DNA of 4,181 nucleotides from a virus (lineage: Duplodnaviria; Heunggongvirae; Uroviricota; Caudoviricetes), in IMG/VR virus record IMGVR_UViG_2695420430_000009, positions 1-4,181 of that record, one strand, 5' to 3'. Shown piece after piece: positions 190 to 1,774 of the stretch. Numbering within the stretch: position 1 is the stretch's first letter; each line of letters begins with the position of its first letter. The position numbers and the translations under genes were made by a program. Under the pieces are notes generated by a model. That model was not told the DNA's origin, did no database searches, and worked only from the letters and a program-made list of their open reading frames with translations.

Positions 190-1503
190 ATGGCAGTAAA
201 GATTTCAGGTGTGCTGAAAGACGGCACAGGAAAACCAATACAGAACTGCACCATTCAACTGAAAGCCAGACGTAACAGCACCACGGTGGTGGTGAACACG
301 GTGGCCTCTGAAAATCCGGATGAGGCAGGGCGTTACAGCATGGACGTCGAGTATGGTCAGTACAGCGTCACTCTGTTGGTGGAGGGATTCCCTCCATCAC
401 ATGCCGGGACCATCACCGTGTATGAAGATTCTCAACCGGGGACGCTGAATGATTTTCTCGGTGCCATGTCGGAGGATGACGTCCGGCCGGAGGCAATGCG
501 TCGTTTTGAACTGATGGTGGAAGAAGCGGCGCGTCACGCAGAGGAGGCGAAGAAGAATGCCGGAGAGGCGGAGACATCAGCGAGGAATGCCGGCATATCA
601 GCCAGTCAGGCAGAAGAGAACGCTGCAAATGCTGACACTTCAGCAGGGGATGCATCGGAGTCAGCCCGGCAGGCGGCAGAAAGTGCAGCCGCTGCAAAGC
701 AGTCAGAGGAGGCGTCCTCGTCCTCGGCCTCTGCGGCCGCTCAAAAAGCCAGTGAGTCATCACAAAGTGCAGCAGATGCTGAATTGTCAAGAAAGACGGC
801 AGAAAGTGCAGCCGGTAATGCAGCCAGGGATGCAACGACCGCAACAGAAAAAGCCCGGGAGTCAGCAGAAAGCGCACAGTCAGCGGAACAAAGCAGGATA
901 GCGGCGGAAGAGGCCGTAAACCGAATCCCCACCGTGGTGGGACCTCCCGGGCCAAAGGGGGAACAGGGGCCCGCGGGTCCTCAGGGGCCGAAGGGTGATA
1001 AGGGAGAGCGCGGTGACACCGGCCCTGTCGGGGCAACCGGCGAACGGGGACCGGCAGGTGATGCTGGTCCGGCAGGCCCGCAGGGGCCGAAAGGCGACAG
1101 GGGAGAGCGGGGAGAGACCGGGCTGACAGGAAGTACAGGTCCACAGGGGCCAAAGGGAGATACCGGGGCAACAGGCCCGGCAGGCCCACAGGGACCGAAA
1201 GGAGAAACAGGTGCGGCTGGCCCGGTGGGGGCAACCGGACCTCAGGGACCAAAGGGCGACCCGGGGGAGACACAAATCCGTTTTCGTCTGGGGCCGGGAA
1301 ACATTATTGAGACAAACAGCAATGGCTGGTTCCCGGATACAGATGGTGCGCTCATCACCGGACTGACCTTTCTTGACCCCAAAGATGCCACACAGGTTCA
1401 GGGGCTGTTTCAGCATTTGCAGGTCAGATTTGGTGACGGGCCGTGGCAGGATGTTAAGGGGCTGGATGAAGTGGGCAGTGATACAGGCAGAACAGGAGAA
1501 TGA
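190..1503 (+). CDS. Prophage side tail fibre protein (lambda Stf-like N-terminal domain, collagen-like repeats, short C-terminal domain)
   Basis: ORF-track ORF 184..1503; the likely true start is ATG 190, because the product then begins [16 protein letters not shown]... as lambda Stf does, and GGGGTG lies just upstream. N-terminal ~110 aa closely resemble lambda Stf; aa ~115-245 are Ala/Ser/Glu-rich low complexity (shaft-like); then 37 Gly-X-Y triplets and a ~75-aa C-terminal domain. Stop TGA at 1501-1503. Confidence 0.88.
940..1272 (+). repeat. Collagen-like Gly-X-Y repeat region inside the tail-fibre gene (37 uninterrupted triplets, recurrent GPQGPKG units)
   Basis: Translation [24 protein letters not shown]...[12 protein letters not shown] has Gly at every third residue; GPQGPKG recurs five times and is encoded by near-identical ~20-nt stretches. 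Confidence 0.85.
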
Positions 1504-1504
1504 C

Positions 1505-1774
1505 ATGAATATACTAAAAAAACTTATGCAGCGTCTGTGTGGTTGCGGAAAGCATGATGACCGTGAACACGTGCAGTCGCTTACAGCACAACTGCGTCTG
1601 GGGCCAGCAGACATCCTGGAGTCCGATGAGAATGGTATTATTCCGGAGCAGGACAGGGTAATCACGCAGGTGGTGATACTGGATGCAGATAAAAAGCAGA
1701 TACAGTGCGTGGTAAGACCGCTGCAAATTCTGCGTGCTGACGGGACGTGGGAAAATATTGGCGGGATGAAGTAA
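1505..1774 (+). CDS. Hypothetical 89-aa protein; C-terminal ~60 aa paralogous to the C-terminal domain of the upstream tail-fibre protein
   Basis: ATG at 1505 lies 1 nt after the stf stop (TGAcATG), with AGGAGA 7 nt upstream, suggesting translational coupling. The 133-aa version in the ORF track (from 1373) overlaps stf and is probably an artefact of ORF extension. Residues 28-85 (LRLGPADILESDENGIIPEQDRVITQVVILDADKKQIQCVVRPLQILRADGTWENI) align with stf C-terminal residues ([58 protein letters not shown]) at roughly 35% identity by hand alignment. Confidence 0.6.
   Translation: MNILKKLMQRLCGCGKHDDREHVQSLTAQLRLGPADILESDENGIIPEQDRVITQVVILDADKKQIQCVVRPLQILRADGTWENIGGMK

Follow-up and report, generated by a model that had tools for sequence, protein, structure and literature searches.

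Why should a phage carry the tip of its tail fibre a second time, as a small gene of its own? The question is raised by the IMG/VR virus record IMGVR_UViG_2695420430_000009, of which we analysed a stretch of 4181 nucleotides (nt), called the window below. Here the gene for a collagen-like side tail fibre, stf, is followed directly by an open reading frame (ORF) for 89 amino acids (aa). An earlier, sequence-only reading of this DNA had proposed that the ORF is an old duplicate of the fibre's C-terminal module, and had offered three guesses at its role: a stand-alone tip domain, a chaperone-like helper or a decoy. In this work we show that the small gene is an ancient, separately translated paralogue of PfC (Phage_fiber_C), the domain that caps the collagen-like fibre. 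We tentatively propose that its product is an accessory partner of PfC-tipped fibres, and put the probability of this at roughly 0.42; an obligatory chaperone or a silent spare part is less likely. The ALTERNATIVES put to the test were a recombination reservoir, a frameshift fusion, an obligatory chaperone and a dead remnant.

The relationship between the two proteins is clear at the protein level. Residues 364-425 of stf align with residues 29-88 of the small protein with 23 identities in 62 positions (37%), 63% positives and two one-residue gaps (BLASTP, E=1e-12). The Smith-Waterman score of the pair is 109, a value reached by none of 5000 shuffles (mean 23.2, standard deviation 4.1, maximum 47). 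The identity of about 35% claimed in the sequence-only reading is therefore statistically sound when computed properly. That reading had placed the homology in the last 60 or so residues of stf; the homology is real, and the stretch is not terminal, as a 12-residue tail follows it. The profile search that had been suggested for both segments returned the same family, PF06820, over the full 64-position model at about 1e-35, with 123.4 bits for the small ORF and 118.6 bits for stf against a curated gathering score of 25 bits. PF06820 is also the sole match of the small ORF among Pfam, NCBIfam and the PHROG chaperone families at E<=0.1.

At the DNA level the two copies have drifted far apart. The identical stretch reported earlier is an 11-mer, CGTCTGGGGCC, found at 1285 in stf and at 1595 in the small gene. 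Outside it the DNA is only 55% identical, so the duplication must be old, and the proposal that the fibre's C-terminal module was long ago copied into a separate gene agrees with the BLASTP alignment, the shared PF06820 domain and this divergence. Compared with the PfC domains of the EPclA and EPclB fibres (PMC3368898), the small protein shares PF06820, the 37% identity and the colinear motif series RLGP, NG, IT, LD, LQ and DG-W. However, it has no collagen shaft and instead carries its own 27-residue module with a helix and a CGCG motif. The Cys-rich N-terminus noted earlier, MNILKKLMQRLCGCGKHDD, is present and conserved, and this N-terminal segment has no family match in Pfam, NCBIfam or PHROG. 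Two interpretations of the segment were rejected. A frame-shifted collagen repeat in the first 27 codons was dismissed on inspection of the other two frames, and a lipoprotein or signal peptide was dismissed for want of a lipobox and of a hydrophobic core ahead of the cysteines.

Is this gene new? It had been presented as unexplained, yet it is already covered by Pfam, PHROGs and PGAP, and we are virtually certain that it belongs to a known family of 89-aa genes that includes Sp5 ORF68, 933W L0122 and phi24B gp59. Its residues 1-89 align with positions 1-89 of PHROG 576 ('tail fiber protein', 89 positions; 1.9e-60), and the protein is 94-99% identical to ORFs in 296 phage records, among them 933W L0122 and VT1-Sakai H0003. 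The synonyms Sp5 ORF68 (ECs1229), 933W L0122, phi24B 'gp59' and VT1-Sakai H0003 denote one gene, with the same length and PF06820 domain and the same TGAcATG after a collagen fibre; RefSeq/PGAP calls it "phage tail fiber C-terminal domain-containing protein". Its deletion, which the sequence-only reading had asked for, exists. Mondal et al. 2016 (PMC5155283) made in-frame deletions across the Shiga toxin 2 (Stx2) phage Sp5, with ORF68 (ECs1229, 89 aa) and its deletion primers listed in the supplement. They described ORF68 as a stand-alone fibre C-terminus domain and classed it as non-essential. On K-12, only nine of their 43 mutants could neither form plaques nor lysogenize; deletion of the fibre gene, ORF67, has this effect, and that of ORF68 does not. 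Literature searched under its locus tags (L0122, ECs1229, Z1484 and others) offered nothing on mechanism. Published work thus already covers the gene, its homology to the fibre tip and the fact that infection of K-12 does not need it. What is new here is the 1:1 pairing with the fibre, the near-invariant junction, the selection analysis, the lack of conversion tracts and the notice taken of virion peptides.

How is the small gene expressed? At the junction with stf, AGGAG (1494-1498) is followed by AA, the stf stop TGA (1501-1503), a single C and the ATG at 1505, which bears out the translational coupling through TGAcATG and a Shine-Dalgarno (SD) sequence described earlier. The 23 nt spanning the SD, TGA and ATG are identical in 151 of 158 related loci. 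Within stf, the frame of the small gene is already open 132 nt ahead of its ATG (1373-1504), and gene callers often give extended versions of 102-135 aa, e.g. the 933W L0122 annotation and several database clusters. Because the SD and ATG at 1494-1507 are conserved, we favour the 89-aa product over these. Two peptides exclusive to the small ORF, VITQVVILDADKK and the C-terminal ADGTWENIGGMK, are listed in the supplementary proteome of sucrose-gradient-purified phi24B virions that accompanies a 2026 bioRxiv cryo-EM study (10.64898/2026.04.10.717836). The peptides show that the small gene is translated, and their recovery from a virion preparation at most hints at a structural role.

The same junction invites another explanation, that a programmed +1 shift at the stf stop (GAA TGA C ATG) yields a minor stf-Asp-ORF68 fusion with two tandem PfC domains, the ORF being mainly an extension exon. 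The small ORF does lie in the +1 frame, one base after the UGA-C stop and with an SD-like AGGAG just upstream, and the phi24B authors' search database held 735-aa fusions (645+1+89) flagged 'Spike or just gp59?'. Such a +1 fusion of fibre and small ORF was searched there as the row 'Fusion_6159_FS1', with this annotation. However, the phi24B proteome rows consulted contain neither a junction peptide (e.g. TGEDMNILK) nor an N-terminal peptide, and Mondal et al. found no frameshift-promoting sequence that would fuse ORF68 to the fibre (PMC5155283). By our own reasoning, re-pairing from GAA to AAU would be poor, and the ORF keeps a conserved ATG of its own with a well-spaced SD. We therefore think a programmed shift extremely improbable.

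The small gene is also kept together with the fibre. Through either gene we retrieved 161 loci from IMG/VR and species-representative genomes, some of which share contigs, so that not all are independent; the two genes are adjacent in 161 of 161. In complete E. coli genomes the small gene occurs at 6394 places in 698 of 5426 genomes (median 10 copies per genome) and the stf-PfC segment at 6160 places in 697 genomes, a ratio of about 1:1. The survey of co-occurrence suggested earlier thus favours a stable pair. Nor is the ORF absent or disrupted in most related prophages, as had been considered: 156 of about 160 full-length copies (~97%) have an unbroken frame between ATG and stop, while two are interrupted by a stop codon.

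The pattern of substitutions points the same way. The ratio of nonsynonymous to synonymous substitution rates (dN/dS; pairwise Nei-Gojobori, distinct alleles of 145 in-register loci) is 0.156 for the whole small gene; its codons 1-27 give 0.30 and its PfC 0.072, which makes this PfC more constrained than the fibre's own (0.23). Among 56 distinct small proteins, residues 1-18 (MNILKKLMQRLCGCGKHD) and 26-89 are conserved, with the PfC nearly invariant and most variation confined to the linker at residues 19-25. From the intact frames, the dN/dS values, the conserved junction and the conserved residues we conclude that the small gene encodes a translated, functional protein.

Could the gene nevertheless be a non-functional leftover of an old tip replacement, hitch-hiking with stf? 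It is small, K-12 infection shows no phenotype when it is lost, and some prophages carry additional, decayed pieces of it close by. About 13 of the fetched loci hold such a third fragment of about 125 nt, covering codons ~37-85 with an in-frame stop, at 72-78% protein identity. About 690 nt separate it from the intact copy upstream, and another nleG gene follows it at once, a position which suggests that effector cargo is exchanged by recombination in or near the small gene. The fragment is found at 3942-4100 of locus L006 and also in L007, L011, L028, L036, L050, L063, L066, L103 and others, and is not present in the window. However, these true relics, with their in-frame stop, truncation and lowered identity, look different from the copy behind stf. 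A dN/dS of 0.07-0.16, about 97% intact copies and peptides from the translated gene stand against a leftover. The selection signature effectively refutes it, and we leave it next to no chance.

A more attractive proposal is that of Mondal et al. (PMC5155283), who suggested that ORF68 is an intragenomic reservoir for tail-fibre variation, that is, a spare C-terminal cassette which can be grafted onto stf by recombination. Rare grafts are found in nature. One, P0270/P0062, is a complete 343-aa fibre that joins a shortened collagen region in frame to the PfC of the small gene (junction GERGP|ADILESD); P0183 is the reciprocal chimera, with the N-terminus of ORF68 joined to stf-PfC. P0270 and P0062 come from single contigs of E. 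coli, and P0183 is likewise known from one contig. Such single-contig rarities among thousands of copies look like microhomology deletions or recombinants, not like a mechanism in use. The consensus sequences of the paralogues are 55% identical with a longest common run of 10-11 nt, and continuous identity of this length lies below the requirement of RecA-type exchange. We also looked for conversion tracts at 81 diagnostic sites in 122 distinct alleles: none of the 54 stf-PfC and none of the 68 ORF68-PfC alleles has two consecutive sites in the state of the other copy. Furthermore, selection keeps the ORF's own start, SD and N-terminal module, and the ORF is translated. A reservoir is thus very improbable.

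The arrangement also resembles the invertible cassettes of Mu (Gin), P1 (Cin) and e14 (Pin), where a second fibre C-terminal module lies just downstream of the fibre gene. In contrast to these, the small gene stands in direct orientation and is separately translated from its own SD and ATG. The short window holds no invertase or recombinase and no inverted repeats, and there are no exchange tracts between the paralogues.

What else might a gene in this position do? Over its first ~110 residues, stf shares about 90% identity with lambda Stf; compared with lambda, the distal fibre and the gene that follows it differ. A similar swap can be seen in the 933W backbone, where the slot between L0120/gp20 and L0124/gp25 exists in two alternative arrangements. 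In 933W it holds an EPclB fibre with a PfC tip and the 89-aa gene. In Stx2-86 it holds a collagen fibre with a Peptidase_S74 tip (gp21), a Gp38_N adhesin (gp22) and cor. From these two arrangements we regard the slot as one for a fibre-tip partner. The earlier remark that the gene sits where lambdoid phages place such a partner (tfa in lambda) agrees with the lambda-like Stf N-terminus and with the Gp38-type adhesin in the 933W-type slot. The small gene accompanies fibres of both types, long-tail EPclA and short-tail EPclB: here it comes after the 437-aa EPclA fibre of a lambda-like prophage, with nleG and an IS256-family element beyond it, whereas Sp5 and 933W, which are short-tailed, have it after the 645-aa EPclB fibre. 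It travels with PfC tips whatever the tail type.

Two known kinds of tip partner offer themselves for comparison. Gp38-type adhesins (Stx2-86 gp22; gp38 of T2 and S16) occupy the equivalent slot in the same backbone, and they are proteins encoded apart from the trimeric fibre whose distal tip they partner. The small protein is much smaller than these and lacks their glycine-rich receptor-binding region, and its attachment to the tip is putative. It has no match to Gp38_N (PF21721), which is present in Stx2-86 gp22. Like lambda Tfa, the small gene lies directly downstream of stf and is swapped along with the distal fibre. However, the two proteins have no sequence relationship, the small protein being homologous to the fibre tip itself. 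Tfa is genuinely required for fibre assembly, whereas the small gene is dispensable for fibre trimerization and, in the phage tested, for infectivity.

A milder, Tfa-like helper would be a small PfC that transiently templates trimerization and chain registration of the fibre's PfC and collagen, raising the yield without being strictly required. The position directly 3' of the fibre gene, translationally coupled as are lambda tfa and other fibre chaperones, and the strict co-inheritance with PfC-tipped fibres are what one would expect of it, and homology to the assisted domain would make templating plausible. Nevertheless, the fibre appears able to manage alone. Ghosh et al. 2012 (PMC3368898) found that recombinant EPclA is trimeric and that the isolated PfC (residues 363-426, 7.2 kDa) forms a 24-kDa trimer with little helix (size-exclusion chromatography with multi-angle laser light scattering). 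PfC also re-nucleates the collagen helix, and Col-PfC refolds rapidly and reversibly after melting in vitro. In these experiments both full-length fibre and PfC folded and trimerized in E. coli cells without the small gene. No drop in plaques or lysogens, partial or complete, is reported for the ORF68 deletion. The small ORF has no similarity to the Caudo_TAP/Tfa chaperone families (Pfam, NCBIfam, PHROG; E<=0.1), and neither it nor stf matches Peptidase_S74 (PF13884). We consider a helper of this kind unlikely.

Of the three roles guessed at earlier, an obligatory chaperone is therefore disfavoured, because neither the fibre nor PfC needs help to trimerize and the phage survives the deletion; a stand-alone tip domain or a decoy may still be right. 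Taken with the published fibre and deletion results, the 1:1 pairing, the conserved junction, the dN/dS values, the lack of conversion tracts and the peptides make it unlikely that the gene encodes an obligatory chaperone or is a silent recombination cassette or a dead remnant.

How, then, might an accessory partner of the PfC-tipped fibre work? As isolated PfC of the stf type trimerizes autonomously, the small protein is probably a homotrimer. We hypothesize that it would form a compact all-beta knob like the characterised PfC, in which the amphipathic helix 3-12 and the invariant C-G-C-G would make a collar at the trimer axis; that this collar holds interchain disulfides or binds metal is speculation. 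The protein could act as a low-copy factor, associated with the tip or the virion, for adsorption or host range on natural hosts. Such a role would be dispensable on rough K-12 and would be maintained for the natural hosts.

Several observations weigh against this proposal. On K-12 the ORF68 deletion fell outside the groups with reduced or increased plaque or lysogen titres (PMC5155283), which means that any role of the small protein must be conditional or subtle. In the part of the phi24B supplement consulted, VITQVVILDADKK and ADGTWENIGGMK are represented by about three spectra each, compared with 47 for a C-terminal peptide of the fibre, gp61. The paper's main text omits gp59 from the structural proteins and does not discuss it (10.64898/2026.04.10.717836). 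Two AlphaFold2 monomer models of the small protein, with a mean predicted local distance difference test (pLDDT) score of 54 from the family alignment and of 47.5 from a more diverse one that included Salmonella and repeat-protein relatives, are unreliable; both show the helix at 3-12 and are all-beta thereafter. The phi24B authors likewise obtained no confident AlphaFold model of the PfC domain, and our search of solved structures by sequence with both segments returned nothing below E=0.1.

The phi24B work also shows lateral fibres that point back towards the capsid, their tips restrained by an unidentified contact, and its authors consider the PfC tip to be probably not a BamA binder (10.64898/2026.04.10.717836). 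These fibres bring to mind a decoy, cap or latch, in which PfC trimers set free by lysis cover the fibre's ligand on debris or on cells nearby, or bind fibre tips or capsid homotypically and so keep the fibres retracted. In the small protein a presumed ligand-binding tip domain stands without a shaft, it occurs in only small amounts in the phi24B virion preparations (to the extent that the supplement was consulted), and the lateral fibres are directed back with restrained tips. However, this explanation is entirely inferential and the ligand of PfC only presumed, the small protein has no signal peptide or lipobox, and no phenotype is reported for the ORF68 deletion. We judge it improbable.

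A related idea, decidedly unlikely though slightly less so, joins these observations to our preferred reading of an accessory partner: the stand-alone PfC trimer would be a tip partner that matters only outside laboratory conditions, either as a receptor-binding cap or as a PfC-PfC latch. If it is a cap, PfC-tipped collagen fibres could engage natural hosts that bear O-antigen. If it is a latch, the lateral fibres could be held folded back on the capsid until triggered. Either would explain why the paralogue is constrained more strongly than the fibre tip, and why the phi24B fibres point towards the capsid.

How widely is this family distributed? It is nearly limited to prophages of Escherichia, E. 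albertii and Citrobacter rodentium. A profile search of 1.84 billion representatives yielded only 95 matches, chiefly fragments from this one Escherichia family. Outside it fall a 136-aa Salmonella protein, 26% identical over the PfC domain, and fibre-like proteins with partial, repeated PfC sub-motifs; a match to a vertebrate protein resembling those of the major histocompatibility complex (P0250) was regarded as spurious. When species-representative genomes were scanned, E. albertii was the only match apart from a 725-nt contig with the label Xanthomonas pisi. This contig (L002, NZ_JPLE01000138.1, strain DSM 18956) encodes the small protein at 94% identity and is most likely an assembly contamination.

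The repeat-rich relatives hint at where PfC came from. The collagen-containing metagenomic protein P0234 (565 aa) contains four repeats in tandem, each of about 80 aa and with 35-50% identity to the second half of PfC; they end in '...VVVLDADAK...GILQVRRADGTWMEIPALKG' ahead of the collagen region. Repeat-rich fibre proteins match the first half ("LD..G.IP..DG..IT") many times, and P0228 (856 aa), listed with P0234, is among those with many 'NLLKLDAxGKIPAVDGSxIT' repeats. By sequence, PfC may have been built from two older fibre motifs.

By its surroundings, the pair lies at the right-hand end of a lambda-like prophage whose host is an attaching/effacing or Shiga-toxigenic E. coli (Table 1). 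The best genome match of the window is E. coli O39:NM F8704-2 (98.4% identity, 97% coverage), whose PGAP annotation of the matching stretch identifies the first gene as Ail/Lom. The fibre consists of PfN (Phage_tail_N, residues 1-133), an Ala/Ser-rich coiled coil, collagen (251-361), PfC (363-426) and an 11-aa tail. It matches the tail fibre families PHROG 366/3279, and agrees in architecture and length with the EPclA of Ghosh et al. (PMC3368898). A consensus promoter scan found no promoter-like site inside stf or ahead of the small gene, and the two genes are co-transcribed as a unit between two terminators. The downstream hairpin was found by RNA folding, where none of 200 shuffles folds as well; it is absent from the consensus terminator scan that reported the upstream one. 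The nleG gene and the IS256-family element beyond it form the typical effector cargo region at the end of a lambdoid prophage, and the transposase is probably a frameshifted pseudogene.

Table 1. Annotated features of the 4181-nt window
Feature	Position	Strand	Basis and remarks
lom 3' end (Ail/Lom family outer-membrane protein)	1..125	+	open at window start; TGA 123-125
Intrinsic-terminator-like hairpin and T-run in the lom/stf gap	152..183	+	8-bp stem, 7 GC pairs, then TTTTTTGT
stf, EPclA-type collagen-like side tail fibre, 437 aa	190..1503	+	PF08400 2.7e-69, PF01391 2.4e-18, PF06820 1.5e-34
PfC (Phage_fiber_C) of stf, the fibre's own trimerization/tip module	1276..1467	+	PF06820, residues 363-426, profile 1-64/64
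Coupling junction: SD AGGAG, stf TGA, one base, small-gene ATG	1494..1507	+	read from sequence
Small gene, 89-aa stand-alone PfC-domain protein	1505..1774	+	PHROG 576 1.9e-60; PF06820 4.6e-36
N-terminal module private to the small protein	1505..1585	+	predicted helix 3-12, C12-G-C14-G-K conserved, linker 19-25 variable
PfC of the small protein, paralogue of 1276-1467	1586..1771	+	PF06820, residues 28-89, profile 1-64
Terminator hairpin and U-run ending the stf-small gene unit	1789..1818	+	-17.5 kcal/mol, z = -4.3, then UUUUUGUU
nleG-family type III effector gene	1883..2518	+	PF06416 1e-36; PGAP 'T3SS effector NleG family protein'
IS256/Mutator-family transposase, two frames	2931..4156	-	PF00872 in ORFs 2931-3710 and 3779-4156; PGAP 'IS256 family transposase'

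In summary, this work contributes population-genetic evidence that the small gene encodes a functional protein and not a spare part, and otherwise adds little to what was published. Collagen-like fibres are carried by nearly every lambdoid prophage of enterohaemorrhagic E. coli, including the Shiga-toxin phages, and what they do is a question that bears on the spread of these phages. The fibre has a single dedicated companion gene, the small paralogue, which, being more constrained than the fibre tip itself, offers a cheap and well-defined handle on what the fibre does.

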